Assembly: GCA_963643205.1 (NCBI GenBank)
Contig: CAVIJJ010000003.1
Coordinates: 12,055 to 76,054, forward strand
From: a bacterium
GTDB taxonomy: Bacteria > Bacillota > Clostridia > Christensenellales > CAG-138
Reading direction: 5' to 3'
Length of the DNA stretch: 64,000 nt
Shown: positions 2,032 to 14,456 of the stretch, in pieces
Position numbering within the stretch: the stretch's first letter is position 1
Layout: every line of letters begins with the position of its first letter
Translations under genes and position numbers: made by a program
Notes under the pieces: model-generated
What the model was told of the DNA's origin: nothing
What the model saw: only the letters and a program-made list of their open reading frames with translations
Databases searched by the model: none

Positions 2032-3336
2032 TCAGATGCCGTACTCCCCATCCTTTACGGTGAGGGTTTTGGAATAGAACACCTTCATGGCCTTAACAAG
2101 GCTGTCTATATCCTCGGCGCCAGCGGTTTCATAGCAGGAATGCATGGCAAGCTGCGGCAGACCTATATCAACCGTGCTTACGGCAACCTTTGTATTGGCA
2201 ATGCTGCCGAGCGTGCCGCCGCCCGCAAGGTCCGAACGATTGGCAAATACCTGCACCGGCGCTTCCGCGTCCGCGCAAACCTGCCTGAAGAGCGCGGCGG
2301 AGATGCCGTCGGTAGTATATTTCTGGTTGGCGTTGAACTTGATAACAATACCCTTGTTCATATAGGGGCAATTGTCAAAATCCGAATACTCGGGGTGGTT
2401 GGGGTGCTGAGCGTGCGCGTTGTCGGCCGATACCATAAAGCTTTGGGCTATCATGGCAATATACTCCTCCTCGTTCTTGCCAAGGTTCAGGGCGATGCGC
2501 CTTAAAAGATCGCGCATAATGTTGGATTCCGCGCCCTGCTTGGTGGAGCTGCCGGTTTCCTCATTATCAAACACGCAGCAAACGGGAATGCTGCCGCTCT
2601 CCTCTGCGTTCATAAAGCCTTCCATGCAGCCGAACGCGCACTCCGTATCGTCAAGCTTGGGGGAGGCGATATACTCATCGTTTCTGCCAAGGAACGTGGG
2701 CGCGGTGCGGTTATAAAGATAAAGGTCGTGACCTATTATATCCTCCGCCTTTAAGCCTATGCTTTCGGCTACGGTCTGCATAAATGTTCCCTTGCCGTTT
2801 TCATCGGAGAAGAGGGGCAGAGTATCTATATTTGCCTTTATCTCAAAGCCGTTGTTGGCGGTTTTATTCATATGAATACAAACGCTCGGGATTATAACAA
2901 GGTCCCTGTCTATATTGACAAGCCTTGATGAGATGCGGCCGTTCTCCCCGCGCACAAGCACGCGGCCGGCAATCGAAAGCGGCCGATCGAACCAGGTTGC
3001 CATAAGCGCGCCGCCGTAGCGCTCGGTGCTGAGCTGAACATAGTGCGCGCCGACCTTTTCGGGATTATCCTTTATCTTAAACGTAGGCGAGTCGCTGTGC
3101 GCCGCGGAAATCATAAAGCCCGCCACGGGGTTTGACGGCACGCGAAACGCCATTATGGTTGATCCGTTGGGCGAAACATAGTACTTGCCGCCGCGGCAAA
3201 GCTTCCACGCCTGCTCGGTATAAAGCTTGGTGTAGCCCTTTTCGTTAAGCGCTTCCTCCAGATTGGCCACAACCTGATACCTTGTGGGGCTCTTCTTCAT
3301 GAAATCCAGCAGTTTTACGGCGTTCTCGTTTTTCAT
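2032..3336 (-). CDS. M18-family aminopeptidase (aspartyl aminopeptidase-like)
   Basis: 434 aa with full-length resemblance to M18 aminopeptidases (SPTRYQV..., AAHSDSP, CVFDNEETGS, DIGLPQLAMHS). AAAGGAG RBS. Confidence 0.85.
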   Translation of the reverse strand: MKNENAVKLLDFMKKSPTRYQVVANLEEALNEKGYTKLYTEQAWKLCRGGKYYVSPNGSTIMAFRVPSNPVAGFMISAAHSDSPTFKIKDNPEKVGAHYVQLSTERYGGALMATWFDRPLSIAGRVLVRGENGRISSRLVNIDRDLVIIPSVCIHMNKTANNGFEIKANIDTLPLFSDENGKGTFMQTVAESIGLKAEDIIGHDLYLYNRTAPTFLGRNDEYIASPKLDDTECAFGCMEGFMNAEESGSIPVCCVFDNEETGSSTKQGAESNIMRDLLRRIALNLGKNEEEYIAMIAQSFMVSADNAHAQHPNHPEYSDFDNCPYMNKGIVIKFNANQKYTTDGISAALFRQVCADAEAPVQVFANRSDLAGGGTLGSIANTKVAVSTVDIGLPQLAMHSCYETAGAEDIDSLVKAMKVFYSKTLTVKDGEYGI

Positions 3337-3376
3337 TGGTGTGTCTCCTTTGTATTAATTTTTTAGTTAAAATGCT

Positions 3377-3499
3377 AATAGTCAATTCCCGCTGCTCTGA
3401 TTGTCAACTTTCCCCGCCCCAATTGTCAACTTTTGTGTTGCGAATAGTCAACATTTGCGGTTCGGATTGTCAACTTTTCATTCCAAAATGTTGACTATT
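3377..3499. repeat. five direct 22-bp-periodic repeats with core (A/G)AT(A/T)GTCAA(C/T), plus one inverted copy
   Basis: Core hexamers sit at 3380, 3402, 3424, 3446 and 3468, an exact 22-bp spacing. The inverted copy GTTGACTATT is at 3490-3499. On the minus strand each unit reads AAAGTTGACAAT, which is -35-like. Confidence 0.9.
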
Positions 3500-3502
3500 G
3501 AA

Positions 3503-3829
3503 TTATTCTTCCCTGTTTTGAGATCTTTCGGTACTGAAACCTTCGGGGTAGCGGCGGCGCAGCTTTTCAATATTGCCCGCGAATATGGTTTCAAGGTCCG
3601 TATCAAGCGCGTACGCGGCCTCCGCAAGGTACCAGGCTATGTCGCCAAGCTCTTCCTTTAGTGCCTCTTTGTTGAGCGGGTGCCCCTGAGCGTACCACTT
3701 TTTGACTATGTCTATCGATTCGCCGGACTCCCCGCAAAGGCCCATCACGCTGTTTATAAGCGCGGACTCCTTGTTCAGATCCTTATTCAATGTTTTAAGC
3801 GCAAGGCTTTGATATTCGTTGATTGTCAT
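3503..3829 (-). CDS. MazG-like nucleotide pyrophosphohydrolase (small, single domain)
   Basis: GLCGESGE...KEELGDIAWYLA matches the metal-binding EExxE/D helices of the MazG/all-alpha NTP-PPase family. Confidence 0.8.
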   Translation of the reverse strand: MTINEYQSLALKTLNKDLNKESALINSVMGLCGESGESIDIVKKWYAQGHPLNKEALKEELGDIAWYLAEAAYALDTDLETIFAGNIEKLRRRYPEGFSTERSQNREE

Positions 3830-3871
3830 GCCGCACCTCCGTCGGAACCTGTTTCGGCTTATTCTACCATA

Positions 3872-3904
3872 TACCGCCGGATAAAAAAAGCCCGGGCACG
3901 ATGT
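3872..3904 (-). terminator. intrinsic terminator after the hsp20 gene
   Basis: AGCCCGGGCAC / GTGCCCGGGCT stem followed by a U-run on the minus strand (plus-strand A-run 3873-3879). Confidence 0.8.
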
Positions 3905-3951
3905 GCCCGGGCTTTATTATGGCCGCGGATGCGGCCTTTTTCGGCTATTCG

Positions 3952-4395
3952 TTATTCAATGGAGATGCTGCTGGATTCGGCAAGCTTCTTCTGCTCGTAC
4001 TTAGGCACGTTAATGGTAAGCACGCCGGACTCATATTTGCACTTTACATCCTCGCTCTTTACATCGCCAACGTAGAAGGTCCTCTGGCAGCTGCCGCTGT
4101 AACGCTCCTGGCGAATTACGCGCTTGGTCTTCTTATCGGTTTCTTCCTTATCAAGGCCCTTGGCGGCGCTTATGGTAAGATAGCCGTTCTTAAGCTGCAC
4201 GTTAATGTCTTCCTTGGCAAAGCCGGGCAGATCAACCGCCAGTTCGTAGCCGTCCTCGGTTTCGTGAATATCGGTCTTCATAATGTGGGAAGCATGCTTA
4301 CCGTAAAGCTCCTTGTTGGCATTCCACATGTTGCGCTCGAAAGCGTCGTTGAACAGGTCATCAAAAAGGTTTTCTCCAAAGATCATCGGTAACAT
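3952..4395 (-). CDS. Hsp20 / alpha-crystallin small heat-shock protein
   Basis: The alpha-crystallin domain (DIHETEDGYELAVDLPGF...GVLTINVPK) is clear. I prefer the start at M35 of the ORF-track protein (ATG at 4395) because of the GGAAG RBS and normal sHSP length. Confidence 0.9.
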   Translation of the reverse strand: MLPMIFGENLFDDLFNDAFERNMWNANKELYGKHASHIMKTDIHETEDGYELAVDLPGFAKEDINVQLKNGYLTISAAKGLDKEETDKKTKRVIRQERYSGSCQRTFYVGDVKSEDVKCKYESGVLTINVPKYEQKKLAESSSISIE

Positions 4396-4609
4396 AATAT
4401 TTTTACTTCCTTTCGCAAGTCGTTTTGTCTTTTTTCCGGCGGCTCTCAGGACCGCTCGCAACGCCGTTTCTCTCGGGGCTCTCGCCCTTTCCTTCACGGT
4501 ACGACTATATTATAACTCCGATTTTTTCCAACGCAACAGCTTGGGGGCAAGCTTCACATTCGTTCATTATAATTGTTGGAAGCATCAATATTCTGTAACA
4601 ATTTAATAT

Positions 4610-5944
4610 TTACGACACAGTTTGGGTGTCGTCTTCCTTGGATTTCTCCTCCTTACTTATAACGCAATGCACTATTCTGTGCTCAAACACCTTGTCAACC
4701 TCCGCGTGTATGCCCGAAACGGATACGGTAAAGCGGCTGCCGTCGGCGGGAATAATGTCAAACTGAGAGAATATAAGGCCGCCCAGGGTATCGAATTCCT
4801 CGGTGGGAAGCTCTATATCGAAAAGCTCCGCTATGTCCTCAAGCGACGCGCGGCCGCCGGTTGAGTATTTGCCGCCGCCCAGGGGCTTTATGGTTTCCTC
4901 CGAATCATCGTCGTCTATATCGCCGACTATCTGCTCAACTATATCGTTCATTGTGACTATGCCGCTCATGCCGCCGTATTCATCAAGCACAACGGCAAAA
5001 TGATTGCGCGTGCGGCGCATTTCCCTGAAAAGATCGTCCGCCTTAACGCTTGCGGGCACAAACAGGGGCGCTGTTACGGCGGCTTTCATAACGTTTTCGC
5101 GCGAACGGTCGCTAAGCTTAAGATAGTTTCTCGCAAGGAGTACGCCTATAACGTCGTCCGGCGTTTCACCGCATACGGGATAGTGCGAATGGTTGGTTTC
5201 CTTTATGGTTTTCTCCCATTCCTCGTCGCTTTCCTCACTCCAAAGCATATCCACCATTGTTCTGTGGGTAAGCATATCGCCGGCCTCAATATCATTAAAC
5301 TCAAACACGTTTTGCAGCAGCTCCTTTTCGCCCGCCTCTATGGCGCCCTTTTCGCTGCCCGCGTCTATCATCATGCGGATTTCGTCCTCGGTAAGCTCGT
5401 TTTCCTCCTCGTTGGGATCAACGCCCATAACCTTAAGCACAAGATTGGTGCTCGCGGTAAGCAGCCACACAATGGGCCTGAACAGGGCGGATATAAAGGA
5501 AATAAGCCCGCTCAGCGCAAGGGCGATTTTCTCCGCCTTTTTCATGGCAAGGCGCTTTGGCACAAGCTCGCCGAAAACAAGGGTGAAGAAGCTGAGTATA
5601 AGCGTTATAACAACAACGCTTACGCTGTTCAGAACATGGGCGTTTATGTTTACGCCTGATGATTGTATAATGCTGACAAGCCTGTCCGCAAAGTTTTCCG
5701 CGGCAAAGGCGCTGCCCAAAAATCCCGCAAGGGTTATGGATATTTGTATTGTTGCCAAAAAACGCGCGGGCTGAGAGGTTAGTTTAGTTAGCCTTGCTGC
5801 CCTTTTGTCGCCGTCCGACGCAAGCTTTGTAAGCTTAACTTCGTTAACGGAAAGCACGGCTATTTCAGCGCACGCGAAAACAGCGTTCAGCAGAATGAAC
5901 AAAGCCTGCAGCAGCAGTAATCCTATAAGCGGGTCGTCTTCCAT
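4610..5944 (-). CDS. CNNM/CorC-type transporter (DUF21 membrane domain + CBS pair + CorC_HlyC), the so-called hemolysin family
   Basis: N-terminal 4-TM DUF21, a central CBS pair and a C-terminal CorC_HlyC-like region. This is the typical TlyC/CorC architecture. Confidence 0.85.
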   Translation of the reverse strand: MEDDPLIGLLLLQALFILLNAVFACAEIAVLSVNEVKLTKLASDGDKRAARLTKLTSQPARFLATIQISITLAGFLGSAFAAENFADRLVSIIQSSGVNINAHVLNSVSVVVITLILSFFTLVFGELVPKRLAMKKAEKIALALSGLISFISALFRPIVWLLTASTNLVLKVMGVDPNEEENELTEDEIRMMIDAGSEKGAIEAGEKELLQNVFEFNDIEAGDMLTHRTMVDMLWSEESDEEWEKTIKETNHSHYPVCGETPDDVIGVLLARNYLKLSDRSRENVMKAAVTAPLFVPASVKADDLFREMRRTRNHFAVVLDEYGGMSGIVTMNDIVEQIVGDIDDDDSEETIKPLGGGKYSTGGRASLEDIAELFDIELPTEEFDTLGGLIFSQFDIIPADGSRFTVSVSGIHAEVDKVFEHRIVHCVISKEEKSKEDDTQTVS

Positions 5945-5978
5945 TTGTGTTTTAATTCCTCCGAAATAAAATCAATTT

Positions 5979-6113
5979 TTATATACAAAAAGACCACGCC
6001 GAGCATAACCCACGGGAAATTGCCCCATGGATTGCGGTATGATCCAATGCATCGATAATTATATAAGCTTGTAACGGAACAGGGCCCGGCGCGTCAGCGT
6101 CGCTCTTTTCCAT
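5979..6113 (-). CDS. possible 44-codon upstream small ORF in the CorC leader
   Basis: AAGGAG lies 8 nt upstream of the ATG at 6113, and the stop is at 5979-5981. It falls below the ORF-track size cutoff and I recognise no homology. Confidence 0.2.
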   Translation of the reverse strand: MEKSDADAPGPVPLQAYIIIDALDHTAIHGAISRGLCSAWSFCI

Positions 6114-6160
6114 CTTTTGTTTCTCCTTCCGTGCCGCGCGCTCGCGCGACATCGAGAATG

Positions 6161-6189
6161 ATTATACTATAATTTTTCTGTTTACGCAA
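6161..6189 (-). promoter_or_regulatory. sigma-A type promoter directed toward the CorC-like gene (TTGCGT-17-TATAAT)
   Basis: On the minus strand: TTGCGT (6189-6184), a 17-nt spacer, TATAAT (6166-6161). This implies a leader of about 210 nt. Confidence 0.5.
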
Positions 6190-6413
6190 TAGATATGATT
6201 GCGCGTATGTGTCCGTGTTTTGCGGACTGAGTTTGCTCGCGATCGGCCCGGTTTTCGCCTTGCCATAATATCTTTTCATAGGGATTCGTTTTTTCGCAAC
6301 CTCGGCTTATGCTTTTTTATGGGGGCTGAATATTTTTTAGGATGTATAAATTCGGCCGGCTGATGTCATATTCCATTCATAATCCTGCATATCAGATGCG
6401 CCTTCCACCGTAC

Positions 6414-6508
6414 TTGTCCACATTATCCACAGAGTTATCCACAATTTCATGGCCTGTATTGTCCGTTTTTGGATTTTATCCACAGCATTCACATTCAAGT
6501 TGTGCACA
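6414..6508 (+). promoter_or_regulatory. cluster of five co-oriented DnaA boxes
   Basis: TTGTCCACA 6414-6422, TTATCCACA 6423-6431, TTATCCACA 6435-6443, TTATCCACA 6476-6484, TTGTGCACA 6500-6508. That is three perfect and two one-mismatch matches to TTATCCACA. Confidence 0.8.
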
Positions 6509-6702
6509 CCCCTATGTTGCATAATTCGTTCGTCTCTGCATAAGGCAAGTGCATAGCGCATGAATTGTTTGGGGATTTTCGCGCGTTCTTTGGGGCAGAT
6601 TAGGTGTATCCCCATGGTGTACAGGCGTTATACACGCGCGCGTACATCGCCCCCGCAAGGCCGTTTTCTTGCCGATTTTGCAGGCAAATCGGGCATTTTT
6701 CT

Positions 6703-6732
6703 TTGACACGCGGCCCATTATGATGATAAAAT
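6703..6732 (+). promoter_or_regulatory. extended -10 promoter for carD (TTGACA-18-TGaTAAAAT)
   Basis: TTGACA at 6703-6708, TG at 6724-6725, TAAAAT at 6727-6732. Confidence 0.55.
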
Positions 6733-6815
6733 AAATTAAGCAAAGCAAAATGTTTTTATTGTTCACGCCCATCGTTTTTTATTCAGCCGCCAAAGCGGAG
6801 AAAGGAAGGAAAGCC

Positions 6816-7289
6816 ATGTTTTGCATAGGCGAAAAAATATGCTACCCAATGCACGGCATAGGGGAAATTTCGGGCATAGAGCAGCGCACTGTGCTGGGAT
6901 CAACCGCCAAATATTATGTGCTTAAGTTCGCGTCCAGCCGTGTAAACGCTATGGTGCCCATAAGCGCGGCGGAAAGCGTTGGCCTGAGGCGGCCCATTAC
7001 GCGCGAGGAAGGCGAAAAAGTATTAAGCTATATTAAGCGCGGCGAATCGGGCGCGGAAACGGCGTGGGGATCGAACTGGAACCGCAGATACCGCGAAAAT
7101 TGCGACAGGCTGAAAAAAGGCGATGTTTACGCCGTTGCGGATGTTTTCCTTTGCCTGAACGCGCGGCAGAACGAAAAGGGCTTAAGCGCCGGGGAGATAA
7201 AAATGCTGGCGCTTACAAGGCGGCTTATTAAGGACGAGCTCATTTACGCCGGATGCGACGAAAAAGACGTTGCATCCGCGATAGGCTGA
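6816..7289 (+). CDS. carD: CarD/CdnL-family RNA polymerase-binding transcription factor
   Basis: FCIGEKICYPMHGIGEI...YYVLKF matches the CarD_CdnL_TRCF N-terminal Tudor-like domain. I prefer the start at 6816 because of the AAAGGAAGGA RBS. Confidence 0.85.
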   Translation: MFCIGEKICYPMHGIGEISGIEQRTVLGSTAKYYVLKFASSRVNAMVPISAAESVGLRRPITREEGEKVLSYIKRGESGAETAWGSNWNRRYRENCDRLKKGDVYAVADVFLCLNARQNEKGLSAGEIKMLALTRRLIKDELIYAGCDEKDVASAIG

Positions 7290-7388
7290 GCTTATGCATT
7301 TTTGCCATGCATAAAATATTTATATATGCATAATTCGGGATTTATATTATAATAATAAATTAACATAGAACAAAGGAGGACTTGGAAT

Positions 7389-8468
7389 TTGGGTAAAAAA
7401 ATAGCCCGTATCGTTATAGCGGTAGCGGGTGCCGTCATAGGCCTTGCGCTTACGGCGGGAGTGGACAGAGTGCTGGCGATGATGAATCGCCTTCTTTTGC
7501 ACGAGGCAGTATATATTGCGGCGGCCATTTTATCAGCAATCATATTTTATATTTTATCTCCCCGCATAATAGAGCTGTTTTCGCGCTTAGTGGGCGGAAT
7601 TGAGGCCAGGATGAGCAACATGTCCCTTTCGGACATAATGCTTGGCGCTTTCGGGCTTATAGTGGGCCTTCTTATAGCGCTGCTGCTCAGCACGCTTACG
7701 TCAAGCCTGCCGGGACTTTTGGCGTTTATAATAAACGCCGTCCTTTACTGCACGTTTGGCTACCTTGGCTGCGCGCTTGTGCTTAAGCGCAGGGGCGAAA
7801 TAAATTTTCCATCGTGGTTTCATCGCCCGGGCAAGGCCGGCAAATCTTCGTCCGCGGCTTCAGTCTCCGGCGCGAGGCCGAAGGTTTTGGACACGTCCGT
7901 TATAATAGACGGGCGCATTGCCGATATATGCCAAACCGGCATGCTTGAAGGGCAGCTTATAGTGCCGGCTTTTGTGCTGGCGGAGCTTAGGCACATAGCG
8001 GACAGCGCGGACACGCTTAAGCGCAACCGCGGCAGGCGCGGGCTGGACATACTCAACCGCATGCAGAAGGAGCAGAACATTCCCATAAAGGTTGTGGATA
8101 CCGATTACGAGGACATCGCGGAGGTTGACGCAAAGCTTATACGCCTGGCTTATGACATGGGCGGCGTGGTTGTTACAAACGACTACAACCTTAATAAGGT
8201 AGCGGGCGTTCAGCGGGTACCCGTATTCAACATAAACGAGCTTGCCAATGCCCTTAAGCCCATGGTGCTTCCGGGCGAGGAAATGATGCTTACAATAGTA
8301 AAAGAGGGCAAGGAATACGGCCAGGGCGTAGGCTACTTAAACGACGGCACAATGATAGTTGTGGACGGCGGCAAGCGCTACATAGGCGAGGAAGTGGCGG
8401 TTATAGTAACAAGCGCGCTTCAGACCGCCGCCGGCAGGCTTATATTCGCGAAGCTTAAAGATTTATAA
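7389..8468 (+). CDS. yacL: PIN/TRAM domain membrane protein (YacL-like)
   Basis: N-terminal TM helices, a PIN domain (VLDTSVIIDGRI...) and a C-terminal TRAM-like beta domain. TTG start 8 nt after GGAGGA. The carD-yacL synteny is typical of Firmicutes. Confidence 0.8.
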   Translation: MGKKIARIVIAVAGAVIGLALTAGVDRVLAMMNRLLLHEAVYIAAAILSAIIFYILSPRIIELFSRLVGGIEARMSNMSLSDIMLGAFGLIVGLLIALLLSTLTSSLPGLLAFIINAVLYCTFGYLGCALVLKRRGEINFPSWFHRPGKAGKSSSAASVSGARPKVLDTSVIIDGRIADICQTGMLEGQLIVPAFVLAELRHIADSADTLKRNRGRRGLDILNRMQKEQNIPIKVVDTDYEDIAEVDAKLIRLAYDMGGVVVTNDYNLNKVAGVQRVPVFNINELANALKPMVLPGEEMMLTIVKEGKEYGQGVGYLNDGTMIVVDGGKRYIGEEVAVIVTSALQTAAGRLIFAKLKDL

Positions 8469-8491
8469 AAATAAATAAAAGAAGGTGCAGC

Positions 8492-10189
8492 ATGAGGCAA
8501 AGTGAACTTATACGCGCGGCATACGAGGGCAAAAACACGCTGGTTATAAAAAACGCCAACGTTGTTAACGTGTTTACGAACGAAATCGTTCACGCGGACG
8601 TTGCCGTATATGAGGACGTTATAATAGGCGTTGGGTCATTTAGCGGAGAAAACGAGATAGACGCCGAGGGGGCGTATCTCGCGCCGGGCTTTATAGACGC
8701 GCATGTGCACATAGAAAGCAGCATGGTTATACCTTCCTCCTTTATGAAGGTTATAATGCCGCACGGCACCACAACCGTTATAGCCGACCCGCACGAGATA
8801 GCGAACGTTGCGGGAGTGGCCGGCATAAGGGCCATGTATAAGCTTACGGACGATCTGCCGCTGAGGGTGCTTTTCATGCTTCCCTCCTGCGTGCCGGCAA
8901 CCCCGTTTGAGCACAGCGGCGCAAAGCTTGTGGCGGAGGATATGGAGCAGTTTATGCGCAAAAGCCGCATACTCGGCTTGGGCGAAGTTATGGACGCGAA
9001 CAGCGTTATAAACTGCAGTCAGGAGATGCTTGATAAGCTTAGGCTTTTTGACAAGCGCCCCATAGACGGCCACGCTCCTCTGCTCAGCGGCATGGGGCTT
9101 AACGCTTACCGCGTGGCCGGGGCGTTCAGCGACCACGAATGCTCAACCTATGAAGAGGTTAAGGAAAAGCTTGCCACAGGTATGAACATACTGCTTAGAA
9201 TCGGCAGCGCCGCCAACAATATGGACGACGTTATGCGACGCATAGCCGAAGAAAAGCTGCCCACCGAAAACATGATGTTCTGCACGGACGACAAGCACAT
9301 AGAGGATATAAGGAGCAAGGGCCACATAAACGCTAACGCGCGCATGGCCGTTGCCGCGGGTATAGACCCGATAGAGGCTATAAAAATGGCCTCCTACAAC
9401 GCCGCCCGTGCCTACGGCATAAAGGGAATAGGCGCCATAGCCCCGGGCTACAAGGCGGACATGGTTCTGCTTGAGGATCTTAAGGACTTTAAGGTTAAGC
9501 AGGTTATAACCCGCTTTGGCGTGCCTTACAGCGGCGATGAGCCCATACCCTCCCCCATACTTCCCCCGCAGGTATTCAACAGCGTGCGCCTGCCGGAAAT
9601 CACAAAGGAAAATCTCGCGCTTAAGTGCCATGTAAGCGCGCCGGTTATAAAAATGCTGCCTCATCAGCTTGTGACGGAGCTTGTATACAGGGATGTGCAG
9701 CGCGATGAGGACGGCTGTTTTGTGCCCGGTAACGGCTTAATAAAGCTTGCCGTAATAGAACGCCACCACGCTACCGGCAATATCGGCCTTGGCATACTTG
9801 AAGGGCTTGGGCTTAAGCACGGCGCCGTAGCGGCTACCGTTGCGCACGACAGCCACAATTTGGTGGTTGCCGGCGATAATGACGAGGATATGCTTATGGC
9901 GATAGAGTCGCTTAGGGAATGCGGCGGCGGATACAGCGTTGTAAGCCGCGGCGTGGTTCTGGCGAGACTCCCCCTGCCCATAGCCGGCCTTATGACGGAC
10001 GCGCCCGTGAACGAGGTGCTTGAAATTCAGCAGGCGCTGCTTGAGGCGCTTTACAGCCTGGGTACCAAGCGGGACAGCGATCCGCTTATAGCTCTCTCCT
10101 TTATGGCTCTGCCGGTAATACCGGCGGTCAAGCTTACGGACGAGGGACTTTTTGACGCGGTAAATTTCAAATTTATAAAATATAATTAA
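8492..10189 (+). CDS. ade: adenine deaminase
   Basis: 565 aa with GFIDAHVHIESS metal-binding motif and the length and architecture of the Ade family. Confidence 0.85.
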   Translation: MRQSELIRAAYEGKNTLVIKNANVVNVFTNEIVHADVAVYEDVIIGVGSFSGENEIDAEGAYLAPGFIDAHVHIESSMVIPSSFMKVIMPHGTTTVIADPHEIANVAGVAGIRAMYKLTDDLPLRVLFMLPSCVPATPFEHSGAKLVAEDMEQFMRKSRILGLGEVMDANSVINCSQEMLDKLRLFDKRPIDGHAPLLSGMGLNAYRVAGAFSDHECSTYEEVKEKLATGMNILLRIGSAANNMDDVMRRIAEEKLPTENMMFCTDDKHIEDIRSKGHINANARMAVAAGIDPIEAIKMASYNAARAYGIKGIGAIAPGYKADMVLLEDLKDFKVKQVITRFGVPYSGDEPIPSPILPPQVFNSVRLPEITKENLALKCHVSAPVIKMLPHQLVTELVYRDVQRDEDGCFVPGNGLIKLAVIERHHATGNIGLGILEGLGLKHGAVAATVAHDSHNLVVAGDNDEDMLMAIESLRECGGGYSVVSRGVVLARLPLPIAGLMTDAPVNEVLEIQQALLEALYSLGTKRDSDPLIALSFMALPVIPAVKLTDEGLFDAVNFKFIKYN

Positions 10190-10219
10190 AGCCGCTTCCG
10201 GCGGAAAGGAGCTTGCCCA

Positions 10220-12508
10220 ATGGGCGTTATAGGACAAAGCGTAACGCGCGTGGACGCGCCTGACAAGGTTACGGGCCGCGCGAAATACACGGACGATCTT
10301 GCCGACCGCTCCGCGCTGATAGCCAAAATACTTCATTCAACCATTGCTCACGGCTACGTAAAAAGCATTGATATTTCGGAGGCCGAGAAAGTAAACGGCG
10401 TTGTAAAAATTGTAACCTGCTTTGACGTACCCAATATACCCTTCCCCACGGCGGGACACCCCTGGAGCACGGATCCGCATCATCAGGATGTTGCGGACAG
10501 GCTGCTTCTTAATCGCCATGTACGCTACTACGGCGATGAAATAGCGGCGGTTATAGCGCGCGACGAAGTGAGCGCCGCCCAGGCGATACGCGCCATTAAG
10601 GTTGAATACGAAACGCTGCCGTTTGTGCTGGACCCGATAGAGGCCATGCAGGACGGCGCGCCGCAGGTTCACGAGGAACGTGATCACAACATACTCGCCC
10701 ACACATCTTATGAGGACGGCGACTATGAGGAGGCCATAAAGGAGCCGGGCCTTATAGTTATAGACAAGTGGTACAATACCCCCACCGTTCAGCACTGCCA
10801 CATAGAAAACCACATATGCTTCGCCTACGAGGAAGCGAACAAAATAAACGTTGTAAGCTCCACGCAGATACCGCACATTGTGCGCCGAATTGTCGGCCAG
10901 GCGCTTGGGCGCGACTGGGGCAGCGTGCGCATAGTAAAGCCCTATATAGGCGGCGGCTTCGGCAACAAGCAGGACGCTCTTTATGAGCCGCTCTGCGCCT
11001 ATCTTTCAACGGTTGTTGGCGGCAGGCTTGTTAAGCTTGACGTAAGCCGAGAGGAAACATTTGTAAGCAACCGTGTACGCCACGCGATAAGATACCACAT
11101 TATTTCGCACGTTCGTCCGGACGGCACGTTTGTCGCCGGCAGGCTTTGGGCCTATTCCAACCAGGGCGCTTACGCGAGCCACGGCCACAGCATCTGCGCC
11201 AAGGGCGCTGGCGCGTTCAGGCAGCTTTACCGCTACCGCAACGCCTGCAAGGGAGACGCCTACACAATTTATACAAACATGCCCACGGCGGGCGCAATGC
11301 GCGGCTACGGCATTCCGCAGATGATGTTCGCTATGGAAAGCCACGTGGACGACATAGCGAAAAGGCTGAACATACCCCCGCTTAAGCTTAGGCAAATGAA
11401 CCTGATGGAGGTTGGTTACAAGGACGAATTCTCCAAAAACGAAAACTATTTCGACAGCTTTAATCAGTGCATAGCCAAGGGCATGGAGTATATTGACTAC
11501 GAGCGCAAGCTTGAGGAATATTCCCACGATACCGGCCCCATCCGCCGCGGCGTAGGCATGGCCGTGTTCTGGTACAACACCGCCGTATGGCCAATATCGC
11601 TTGAAAGCTCCTCCTGCCGCATGGTGCTCAATCAGGATGGCTCCGTGCAGCTTCAGCTTGCCGAAACCGAAATAGGTCAGGGCGCGGACACGGCATTCAG
11701 CCAGATGGCGGCGGACGAATTAAGCCTGCCGCTTGAAAAGGTTCACATTATATCCGCCCAGGACACGGACGTTACCCCCTTCGGCACCGGCGCTTACGCC
11801 AGCCGCCAAACGTACGTGGGCGGTTTTGCCGTGCAGCAGACGGCGCGCCTGCTTAAGGAGCGCATACTCAACTACGCCCACGAGCTTACCCGCATGACGG
11901 TTCATAATTTGGACCTTGAGGACGGCTACATTATAAACGTAAATAATCACAGGCAGCTTTTAAGCCTTAAAGAGCTTGCCACAACCGCGCTTTACAGCCT
12001 GGAGCACAGCCAGCATATTACGGCCGAAAGTACCTACCAGATAAAGTCAAACGCGTATTCGTTCGGCTGCTCCTTCGCGGAGGTGGAGGTTGATATTCCC
12101 CTTTGCAAGGTAAAGCTTGTGAATATTATAAATGTGCACGACTGCGGCAGGCTTATAAACCCCGCGCTCGCGGCGGCGCAGGTACACGGCGGCATGAGCA
12201 TGGCCATAGGCTACGGGCTTAGCGAGCAGCTGCTTTTTGACAAGAAGACAGGCCGCGCGCTTAACAACAACCTGCTCGACTACAAGATTTCAACCATGAT
12301 GGACCATCCGCACCTTGAAGCGCAGTTTGTGGAAAACTATGAGCCCACAAGCGCATACGGCACAAAGGCGCTTGGCGAGCCGCCCGCGACAAGCGGCGCC
12401 CCCGCCATAAGAAACGCCGTGCTTAACGCAACAGGCGTGGAAATAGACTCCGCTCCCCTTACGCCGCACATTCTGTTTGAGCGGTTCCGTGAGGAAGGGC
12501 TTATATAA
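10220..12508 (+). CDS. xdhA: xanthine dehydrogenase family, molybdopterin-binding large subunit
   Basis: 762 aa. N-terminal Ald_Xan_dh_C region (KVTGRAKYTDD) and a GGGFGNK motif; about the size of E. coli XdhA. Confidence 0.9.
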   Translation: MGVIGQSVTRVDAPDKVTGRAKYTDDLADRSALIAKILHSTIAHGYVKSIDISEAEKVNGVVKIVTCFDVPNIPFPTAGHPWSTDPHHQDVADRLLLNRHVRYYGDEIAAVIARDEVSAAQAIRAIKVEYETLPFVLDPIEAMQDGAPQVHEERDHNILAHTSYEDGDYEEAIKEPGLIVIDKWYNTPTVQHCHIENHICFAYEEANKINVVSSTQIPHIVRRIVGQALGRDWGSVRIVKPYIGGGFGNKQDALYEPLCAYLSTVVGGRLVKLDVSREETFVSNRVRHAIRYHIISHVRPDGTFVAGRLWAYSNQGAYASHGHSICAKGAGAFRQLYRYRNACKGDAYTIYTNMPTAGAMRGYGIPQMMFAMESHVDDIAKRLNIPPLKLRQMNLMEVGYKDEFSKNENYFDSFNQCIAKGMEYIDYERKLEEYSHDTGPIRRGVGMAVFWYNTAVWPISLESSSCRMVLNQDGSVQLQLAETEIGQGADTAFSQMAADELSLPLEKVHIISAQDTDVTPFGTGAYASRQTYVGGFAVQQTARLLKERILNYAHELTRMTVHNLDLEDGYIINVNNHRQLLSLKELATTALYSLEHSQHITAESTYQIKSNAYSFGCSFAEVEVDIPLCKVKLVNIINVHDCGRLINPALAAAQVHGGMSMAIGYGLSEQLLFDKKTGRALNNNLLDYKISTMMDHPHLEAQFVENYEPTSAYGTKALGEPPATSGAPAIRNAVLNATGVEIDSAPLTPHILFERFREEGLI

Positions 12509-12525
12509 AGGAGGTCACATAAAAT

Positions 12526-13407
12526 ATGTATGATATAAAGGCGCTGTATGAGGCAAGCAGCGTAAAAGAAGCGATAGAGCTTATGCAGCAGCATCCGCAG
12601 GCGAAGATAATAGCCGGCGGAAGCGACGTGCTTATAAAGCTGCGCGAGGGTAAGCTTGCCGGATGCGAACTTGTAAGCATATACGGCATAGACGCGCTGC
12701 GCGGCATAAGCCTTGACGAGGACGGCACGCTGAGAATACTGCCGCTTACAAGCTTTTCGCACATAACGAAGAACGACCTTATAAATGAGCACATAAAGGT
12801 TCTGGGCGAGGCTGTGGACATGGTAGGCGGCCCGCAGATAAGAAACATAGGCACAATAGGCGGCAACATATCAAACGGCGTAACGAGCGCGGACAGTTCA
12901 AGCACCCTGCACGCGTGGGACGCGATAGTTGAGCTTACGTCCGCGGACGGAGTAAGGCAGCTGCCCATAAAGGAATACTACGTAAGCGCGGGCAAGGTTG
13001 CCCTGCGCCCGGCGGAGCTGCTTACGGCCATACTTATTCCAAAGAAGAGCTATTCAGGCTACAAGGGGCACTATATAAAATACGCCATGCGAAACGCCAT
13101 GGATATAGCCACCCTGGGCTGTTCTGTAAACGCGAAGCTGAGCGAGGACAAAAAAACAATTGTTGACGCGCGCATAGCCTACGGCGTTGCGGGTCCCGTT
13201 CCCATGCGGGCACCGAGCGCGGAGGAAGCGGCCCGCGGCAAAGAGGTTTGCCAGGCAACGATAGACGCGTTTGCCGATGCCGCGTTGGGCGACATAAACC
13301 CCAGAGACAGCTGGCGCGCCAGCCGCGATTTCAGGCTGCATATAGCGCACGAGCTTGCAAAGCGCGCGCTTAGCGAATCGATACGCCTTTCGGGAGGTGA
13401 ACTGTAA
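12526..13407 (+). CDS. xdhB: xanthine dehydrogenase FAD-binding subunit
   Basis: 293 aa FAD_binding_5/CO-dehydrogenase flavoprotein type (IIAGGSDVLIKL, GNISNG). Confidence 0.9.
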   Translation: MYDIKALYEASSVKEAIELMQQHPQAKIIAGGSDVLIKLREGKLAGCELVSIYGIDALRGISLDEDGTLRILPLTSFSHITKNDLINEHIKVLGEAVDMVGGPQIRNIGTIGGNISNGVTSADSSSTLHAWDAIVELTSADGVRQLPIKEYYVSAGKVALRPAELLTAILIPKKSYSGYKGHYIKYAMRNAMDIATLGCSVNAKLSEDKKTIVDARIAYGVAGPVPMRAPSAEEAARGKEVCQATIDAFADAALGDINPRDSWRASRDFRLHIAHELAKRALSESIRLSGGEL

Positions 13408-13904
13408 TGAGCCAGACGAAGCTTATTAAATGCACGATAAACGGCGAATATGTTGAAAAAATGATAGACGTTCGCGCCTCCCTTACGGATATGCTGAGGA
13501 ACGATTTTCGCCTTACGTCCGTTAAAAAGGGCTGCGAGGTTGGCGAATGCGGAGCGTGCAACGTTATAATAGACGGCGAATGCTTTAACTCCTGCATTTA
13601 CCTTGCCGTTTGGGCGGACGGCAAGAATATACGCACGCTTGAAAGCCTGCTTGGCCCCAACGGCGAGCTTTCGGATATTCAGCAGGCGTTTGTGGACGAG
13701 GCCGCCGTGCAGTGCGGTTTCTGCACCCCCGGCTTCATAATGACGGCCGTGGAAATACTTGAAAGCGGCCGCCGCTACACGCGCGACGAGCTCAGAAAGC
13801 TTTTAAGCGGGCATCTTTGCCGCTGCACCGGATATGAAAACATACTCAACGCGGTTGAGAAAACCATGAACAAAAGGCTTAGCGAGAAAGAGAGCGCAAA
13901 GTAA
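13407..13904 (+). CDS. xdhC: xanthine dehydrogenase [2Fe-2S] subunit
   Basis: 165 aa with both 2Fe-2S motifs (GCEVGECGACNV; CGFCTPG...CRCTGY). Its start overlaps the xdhB stop by 1 nt. Confidence 0.9.
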   Translation: MSQTKLIKCTINGEYVEKMIDVRASLTDMLRNDFRLTSVKKGCEVGECGACNVIIDGECFNSCIYLAVWADGKNIRTLESLLGPNGELSDIQQAFVDEAAVQCGFCTPGFIMTAVEILESGRRYTRDELRKLLSGHLCRCTGYENILNAVEKTMNKRLSEKESAK

Positions 13905-14456
13905 ATGTATCAGCAAAACGCGCAAAGGCCGGGCGGATCATCAAAGGGCCTTGATACCGCGCTGATTATAATATTTATAGTAATTGTGCTTTTCGCGCGG
14001 GAAATTTCAAACGTAGCGTCAAGCCTGCCCTCCCCCTTAAACGTGATTGTGCAGATATTCCTGCTGGGCGCGATAGTGGGCGTGCTGCTTTGGGTTTATG
14101 AAAAGCGCATAAGCACATTCCGCTACACGGTGGTGTACGATCCCTATGCCAAGGAGGAAGGCGACGAAAGCACAGAGCCTCTGCCCTATAAAAAAGGCAC
14201 GCTTATGTTTGAGCGCATGGTCGCGGACAAGGGAAAGCTTGTTGAGTGCGTTACAAGGGACGAATTCGTAGCCCTTATGAAGCCCGGTGAAAAATACGGC
14301 GAGGGCATATCGTTCCTGCGCGCAAGCAGCCTGAGCACCGCCAAATGCGAAGAGTCATACACGCTTATATTCCGCCGCTCCGGCAAGCTGTACAGCATTA
14401 TGTTCGCGCCGGACGAGGAGTTTTTGAGGCGGCTTGACGAGGCCATGGAAGGCTGA
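13905..14456 (+). CDS. hypothetical 2-TM membrane protein, translationally abutting the xdh operon
   Basis: The ATG follows directly after the TAA of the 2Fe-2S subunit gene. Two N-terminal hydrophobic helices precede a soluble domain of about 110 aa. I recognise no family. Confidence 0.55.
   Translation: MYQQNAQRPGGSSKGLDTALIIIFIVIVLFAREISNVASSLPSPLNVIVQIFLLGAIVGVLLWVYEKRISTFRYTVVYDPYAKEEGDESTEPLPYKKGTLMFERMVADKGKLVECVTRDEFVALMKPGEKYGEGISFLRASSLSTAKCEESYTLIFRRSGKLYSIMFAPDEEFLRRLDEAMEG

Follow-up and report, generated by a model that had tools for sequence, protein, structure and literature searches.

An orphaned DnaA-box array beside carD in a member of the Christensenellales: a probable secondary DnaA-binding locus

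The DnaA-box array and its surroundings

The array lies between two divergently oriented blocks of genes in a 64-kb stretch of DNA (64,000 nucleotides, here called the window) from a bacterium of the Christensenellales. It is flanked on the left by a gene for a CNNM/CorC-type transporter and on the right by a gene for a CarD-family protein, for which an exact look-up of the protein returned no record. The carD gene is followed by genes for a PIN/TRAM protein, an adenine deaminase and a xanthine-dehydrogenase set. The last of these form a purine-catabolism block on the plus strand (8492-14456), in which the adenine deaminase is followed by molybdopterin, FAD and 2Fe-2S subunits of the xanthine-dehydrogenase type; the order of adenine deaminase and molybdopterin subunit is kept in the closer relatives L126, L127, L130 and L131. 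The features of the locus are as follows.

4610-5944, minus strand: CNNM/CorC-type transporter gene, left flank
6161-6189, minus strand: likely promoter of the small-ORF/CNNM operon, TTGCGT-17-TATAAT, with a perfect -10 and a weak -35
6253-6266, minus strand: remnant of an amidase start, ATGGCAAGGCGAAA, reading 'MARR'; about 14 nt align
6264-6413, minus strand: former amidase upstream region (promoter and 5'UTR), diverging slowly between the window and the related locus L001
6414-6422, plus strand: DnaA box 1, TTGTCCACA, 1 mismatch
6423-6431, plus strand: DnaA box 2, TTATCCACA, start +9, abutting box 1
6435-6443, plus strand: DnaA box 3, TTATCCACA, start +21, after a 3-nt spacer following box 2
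6444-6475, plus strand: spacer of 32 nt, conserved in length and variable in sequence
6476-6484, plus strand: DnaA box 4, TTATCCACA, start +62
6485-6493, plus strand: degraded DnaA box 5, GCATTCACA, start +71, with 3 mismatches; relatives have a good box there
6500-6508, plus strand: TTGTGCACA, earlier taken as the fifth box, 2 mismatches to the strict consensus
6703-6732, plus strand: carD promoter, TTGACA-18-TAAAAT with a TG, conserved in all relatives
6816-7289, plus strand: CarD-family protein gene, right flank

The array consists of five co-oriented boxes starting at 0, +9, +21, +62 and +71, and is thus made up of a triplet and a pair. Four boxes with at most one mismatch fall inside 71 bp, together with the one degraded box. 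Three of the four perfect TTATCCACA boxes in the 64-kb window are found here. A density of four sites with at most one mismatch per 100 bp was reached in none of 300 first-order Markov simulations (the maximum was 3, seen once). Counted over the whole window, sites with at most one mismatch number 24, against 9.4 +/- 3.1 in shuffled sequences. The DnaA-box array is real and goes beyond chance.

The array had been noticed in a first-pass annotation of this DNA, and most of that description is borne out. The switch in gene orientation is as described there, from minus (2032-5944) to plus (6816-14456). The abutting of boxes 1 and 2 and the 3-nt gap before the third agree with both our reading of the sequence and the pattern searches. 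The statement that five co-oriented boxes lie within 95 bp needs one correction. The positions and the strand stand, but TTGTGCACA at 6500 has to be given up as the fifth box: it has two mismatches, is common to the window and L001 only, and is not conserved in other relatives, so that its role as a DnaA box is doubtful. The fifth site that relatives share starts at +71. In the window it has decayed to GCATTCACA (6485), and it is already degraded in both the window and L001.

Several details of the boxes recur in the relatives. Position 3 of box 1 is a G, and is invariant across the close family. The start of box 3 is about two helical turns from that of box 1, and the start of box 4 at +62 is kept to within 1 bp in all array-bearing relatives. 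A T-tract lies directly 5' of box 4 in all relatives (tttttggatt in the window), and is the only conserved feature of the array outside the boxes. Just downstream of the array, window positions 6516-6560 contain three copies of a TGCATA(A) motif plus GCGCATGAA. The motif is also found at equivalent positions in L002, L005, L031 and L102, its positions not being strictly conserved, and some copies resemble weak inverted DnaA boxes (TTATGCAGA, TTATGCAAC).

The gap in which the array lies (5945-6815) was earlier described as unusually long and gene-free. This holds insofar as no ORF in it matches a Pfam family, but the gap is not empty, containing a conserved 44-aa ORF, the amidase remnant and two promoters. 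One of these, at 6161-6189, has both its hexamers unchanged in L001. The other is the carD promoter, which is about 220 bp downstream of the array and separated from it by a fast-evolving spacer. The 44-aa ORF (MEKSDADAPGPVPL..., 5979-6113, minus strand) has a strong Shine-Dalgarno sequence and lies in the CNNM/CorC leader of about 200 nt. It has no match in Pfam, and its 45-aa counterpart in L128 (MDESDGDAAGPVPL...), which has the same N-terminal motif, is a called gene; the ORF could encode a leader peptide or a small protein. Directly upstream of the carD -35, a hairpin CCGATTTTGCAGGCAAATCGG with a T-run (6672-6700, plus strand) resembles a terminator. The hairpin is not conserved in relatives and the sequence GGCATTTTTCTTTGACA is, and this element is more likely to be an UP-element-like promoter feature than a terminator.

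An array conserved beside an amidase gene, and the loss of that gene

The boxes are evolutionarily conserved as DNA elements. A contig scan with CarD as the query returned five loci, of which three, at 62-95% identity, share the starts 0, +9, +21, +62 and usually +71; the array is absent from the two loci at 53% identity. The same array accompanies further CarD homologues at 63-70% identity (L126-L131), and a CarD locus at 51% identity (L132/133) is without it. Exactly the same 0/9/21/62/71 spacing recurs in ten related loci of about six lineages, at CarD identities of 62-95% (the loci named for it are L001, L002, L005, L031, L102 and L126-L131), and in 12 related loci overall. In a six-way ungapped comparison, 39 of 45 columns are invariant in the boxes, against 15 of 115 outside them. 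No description of this strict geometry was found in the literature searched, and the B. subtilis IDAP-seq paper does not analyse box spacing.

In the relatives, the left neighbour of the array is not the CNNM gene but a gene for an Amidase_3 protein, whose best NCBIfam match is the spore protein CwlD, under the curated cut-off. The amidase gene is divergent, with the boxes pointing away from it, and the distance from the triplet to its start codon is 138-147 nt (146-148 nt for box 1 in the carD-context family). This distance holds with carD, alr or an mrp-like gene on the other side. A search was also made with the amidase itself as the query, and the contigs of four homologues (L134, L135, L136 and L137) were examined. 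In L134 (alr) and L135 (mrp/ParA-like) the amidases are 52-54% identical and the array has the same geometry (0, 9, 21, 62-63, 71-72), with box 1 at 138 or 146 nt from the amidase start. The homologues L136 and L137 are without the array, and the association of amidase and array is therefore not universal. An amidase-array-prfC arrangement occurs in nine further metagenome loci among the matches listed.

The distance from the array to carD, by comparison, ranges from 317 to 502 bp among relatives. Since the amidase distance is fixed and the carD distance is variable, the array appears historically to have been part of the amidase upstream region. The geometry holds whatever gene lies opposite, and its ancestral role, judging from this geometry, would thus most likely have been DnaA-dependent control of the amidase promoter. 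Both targets that had been suggested earlier are disfavoured: the carD promoter (6703) because its distance from the array varies, and the CorC/CNNM gene (6189) because the fixed distance and orientation of the array are to the lost amidase. For the amidase promoter, the consensus sequences for sigma-A and for the sporulation sigma factors (E, F, G and K) were tried on the conserved ...AAAAAGCATAAG... block, with no convincing match, and in the window no promoter adjoining the boxes could be assigned. We know of no spore-cortex-type amidase that is a DnaA target.

The window lacks this gene as a result of a deletion. The gene order in L130 is HSP20, CNNM, a Spo0A_C-only gene, amidase (divergent), array, carD, PIN/TRAM, adenine deaminase and xanthine dehydrogenase. 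Alignment to L130 and L128, together with synteny, shows that about 1.3 kb has been lost in the window, comprising the amidase and the Spo0A_C-only gene. Window positions 4092-6142 align with L130 1-2049, and 6253-6493 with L130 3440-3680, so that the window has 110 unalignable bases (6143-6252) where L130 has about 1.39 kb. The deletion is common to the window and L001. What remains of the amidase gene is its start, on the minus strand at 6266, and its former Shine-Dalgarno sequence is mutated in the window; no amidase was found elsewhere in the 64 kb. The long gap between CNNM and carD is partly the scar of this deletion. A 61-aa ORF (6094-6279) was considered as the amidase remnant and rejected, the real remnant being the 'MARR' start.

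The Spo0A_C-only gene, absent from the window through the deletion, lies in relatives between the CNNM gene and the amidase, and encodes a protein of 114 aa (L130:2318-2662 and L128:2004-2351, both on the plus strand; Pfam Spo0A_C, E = 3e-25). A near-palindrome, TCGGCCGGCTGA, is found about 50 bp to the left of box 1 (6352-6363), within an invariant block. Its counterpart in L126, L130, L031 and L102 is a perfect 12-bp palindrome, TCGGCCGGCCGA, and it is absent from the more distant relatives L005, L128, L134 and L135. Another factor may use it as an operator.

The loss of the amidase provides an opportunity to look for constraint on the array after its neighbour had gone. Between the window and L001, divergence is 20% in the remnant (-240 to -150 relative to box 1), 15% in the spacer toward carD (+100 to +260) and 14.6% at carD third codon positions, and is only 4.4% in the island around the array (-150 to +100, 6264-6514). 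The island evolves about four times more slowly than the flanking DNA (Fisher p = 8e-6 against neutral-like DNA), a contrast that rests on one genome pair and that a recent patch of recombination could mimic. None of the 45 box positions has changed, for which P = 2.5e-4 at a neutral divergence of about 17%, and the 76-bp block at 6328-6404 shows 0% divergence. The slow divergence of the island despite the deletion argues for a function that has continued without need of the amidase, and for purifying selection, since the deletion, on the array together with about 150 bp of what was once the upstream region.

The triplet at other loci, and the origin question

The box-box-3 nt-box pattern of the triplet (TTNTCCACATNNTCCACANNNTTNTCCACA) is found in at least 120 metagenome contigs (L006-L125). 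Among the matches listed, it occurs upstream of mnmE (16 loci), beside tsaD and upstream of an operon for DnaB_2 (DnaD-like)/DnaI-like proteins, near htrA/two-component genes, near rplM-rpsI, directly upstream of mraZ, upstream of sigG, and beside acyl-ACP thioesterase and MATE genes. Only one of the matches listed, L019, is a dnaA-dnaN origin.

Most of what is known of secondary DnaA-binding loci comes from E. coli and B. subtilis, and for Clostridia no map of DnaA binding was found in the literature searched. The htrA/two-component context of the triplet presumably corresponds to the yydA-yycS DBC, given the B. subtilis gene order. B. subtilis has six DBC sites, including thdF-jag and gcp-ydiF; deletion of all six leads to early initiation, and several also regulate neighbouring genes (PMC3245932). 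The mnmE(thdF) and tsaD(gcp) contexts of the triplet match these two named sites. The presence of the triplet at DBC gene neighbourhoods suggests that the module marks DBC-type loci in Clostridia, and the metagenome triplets can be regarded as outlining a candidate DnaA regulon, or a candidate map of DBCs, in gut Clostridia.

Like the B. subtilis DBCs, the array is found in a Firmicute, outside oriC and beside promoters, as a group of clustered consensus boxes between genes, and the expected roles are the same: local control of transcription, and negative control of initiation by holding DnaA. It differs in that the cwlD-like amidase/carD junction is not among the six B. subtilis sites, in its strict geometry, kept at amidase identities down to about 52%, and in that the associated gene has been deleted. 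The likeness to datA of E. coli, which has about five high-affinity DnaA boxes at a non-origin locus and lowers the initiation potential, is functional only. datA needs an IHF site and promotes DnaA-ATP hydrolysis, and its box arrangement and phylogeny are unrelated; we do not class the array with datA/DARS. The fixed position and orientation of the boxes relative to a gene start recall the DnaA-regulated promoters of B. subtilis (dnaA autoregulation, sda, ywlC, yydA, trmE), with the difference that the target here would be a spore-cortex-type amidase, which is missing in the window.

The array is not a replication origin and does not unwind DNA. Searches by tblastn with the flanking proteins of L019 (including DnaA, DnaN and RecF) and L117 found no homologue of dnaA, dnaN or recF in the 64-kb window. 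DnaA-trios and an unwinding element were sought with an orientation rule by which, on the strand where the box reads TTATCCACA, both lie 3' of it. One source of this rule is the sequence of E. coli oriC. The other is the C. difficile trio 5'-CAC CTA CTA CTA TTA CTA CTA-3' (PMC7561715). The scan used published parameters, with trios defined as 3'-GAT-5' repeats no more than 16 bp 3' of a correctly oriented box (PMC8287927). It gave no match in 5945-6815 or in five related arrays. In the positive control, the dnaA-dnaN-recF locus L019, it recovered a box, CTA-CGA-CTA-CTA-CTA and a long AT-rich tract. The most AT-rich 30-mers of the gap (at 5964, 6155 and 6727) are at gene starts and promoters, with none beside the boxes. 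The window has no replication-type signal in GC skew or gene strand: rightward of the array the plus strand carries just 58% of coding bases, and the strand-independent component of GC skew is -0.013, skew across 64 kb being a weak test.

These results agree with the first-pass annotation, which had noted that dnaA and dnaN are not nearby, had proposed the skew and strand-bias check run here on the window, and had favoured a non-oriC locus over a displaced origin. That preference is strengthened by the many non-origin loci that share the box module, counterparts of B. subtilis DBCs among them.

Proposed function and alternatives

On the basis of these observations, we consider that the array is probably a secondary, non-origin DnaA-binding locus of the B. 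subtilis DBC kind, which was once an operator of the amidase gene and now has another DnaA-dependent role. The cwlD-like/carD site is an additional putative DBC-type locus, distinguished by its rigid architecture and its orphaned state.

The outer boxes of the triplet are two turns apart and the pair is about six turns from box 1, and the main sites therefore lie on one face of the DNA. DnaA would then bind the triplet and the pair cooperatively, as a short oligomer along one helical face. Ancestrally, such a complex would have controlled the divergent promoter of the CwlD-like amidase, by activation or by repression. The deletion removed the amidase and the Spo0A_C-only gene and left the array in place. 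In the lineage of the window the array most likely holds or titrates DnaA, by analogy with the B. subtilis DBCs, and it may perhaps also govern leftward transcription that now heads toward the small-ORF/CNNM operon.

Another proposal is that the array is a purely local operator, for carD (6703) or for the leftward small-ORF/CNNM transcript, with no part in DnaA homeostasis. Its position in a region of divergent promoters is consistent with this. Conservation takes in all of the former amidase upstream region as far as the old start codon, as would fit a leftward promoter that still fires, and at most of the B. subtilis DBCs DnaA serves as a transcription factor (PMC3245932). Yet the distance to carD changes between relatives and the intervening spacer evolves in a neutral-like way. 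The carD promoter is conserved without nearby boxes, and the CarD loci at 51-53% identity have no array. On the left, the CNNM operon has a promoter of its own at 6161-6189, and none can be assigned next to the boxes. We regard the local operator as unlikely, while giving it serious weight. That the array is a functionless relic of the deleted amidase's operator, still waiting to decay, would explain why the gene to which it is geometrically tied in relatives is gone and why box 5 is already degraded in the window and L001. It is difficult to reconcile with a difference of 15-20% in adjacent unconstrained DNA against 0/45 box positions and 0/76 positions of the neighbouring block, and appears improbable.

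The two remaining alternatives would make the repeats something other than a secondary DnaA-binding locus. A displaced oriC, or one half of a bipartite origin, is suggested by the close packing of consensus boxes at a junction of divergent genes and by the presence of the same triplet inside the true dnaA-dnaN origin L019. The array shares its consensus boxes with the basal unwinding system of oriC (PMC8287927, PMC6669920, PMC7561715), and differs from it in having no trios, unwinding element or linkage to dnaA/dnaN. Neither trios nor an AT-rich element lies 3' of any box, in a scan validated by its positive control; the gene content, coding-strand bias and skew of the window are not those of an origin; and the array tracks the amidase gene through different genomic contexts. 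An origin is thus very improbable. Finally, the repeats could encode a peptide, form part of a small RNA or be the site of another protein. An ORF at 6342-6524 spans the boxes and reads LSTLSTELST, and there is a similar short ORF in L002. The coding explanation was rejected, as the boxes of L005 are out of frame with the upstream ATG, which no ribosome-binding site precedes; because the frame is not kept in L005, the conservation must act on the DNA. The small ORFs of the gap (5945-6815) have no match in Pfam. An RNA element was likewise rejected: Rfam gave no match in the gap at the gathering threshold, and at E <= 1 its only two matches, to eukaryotic families, were due to chance. What is conserved is the 9-mer DnaA consensus and not codons, and the identical module is intergenic in many unrelated contexts as well as in a true oriC. 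We find this last alternative hardly credible.

On the preferred reading, that of a secondary DnaA-binding site, the locus provides a sequence-defined and deeply conserved putative DnaA array of fixed geometry. It also presents a natural experiment, in which an array that has lost its former neighbour gene is nevertheless conserved, and in which a local role can therefore be separated from a global one. Confirmation of this reading would carry the DBC concept beyond Bacilli, and would suggest a direct link between DnaA and sporulation genes.

It is tempting to go further, and to see in the rigid five-box array a clostridial cis-regulatory device that wires replication status to late sporulation genes, within a wider regulon and with a part in DnaA buffering. 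This is rather unlikely as a whole and is put forward as a speculation. Among the matches listed, the triplet is upstream of the CwlD-like cortex amidase in several context families and of sigG in others. If the idea were true, the array would be part of an Sda-type checkpoint connecting replication status to late sporulation genes; to our knowledge, Sda itself is not found in lineages with the array. There would also be a wider clostridial DnaA regulon (the dnaD/dnaI-like operon, mraZ, mnmE and htrA-two-component genes), and in the window lineage the array would have outlived its target gene through buffering of free DnaA.

The box-box-3 nt-box search pattern recovers candidate DnaA targets in uncultured gut Clostridia, among them genes for replication, division and sporulation. 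The triplet is in some cases repeated within a contig: L060 has two triplets 63 bp apart, and L089 has more.
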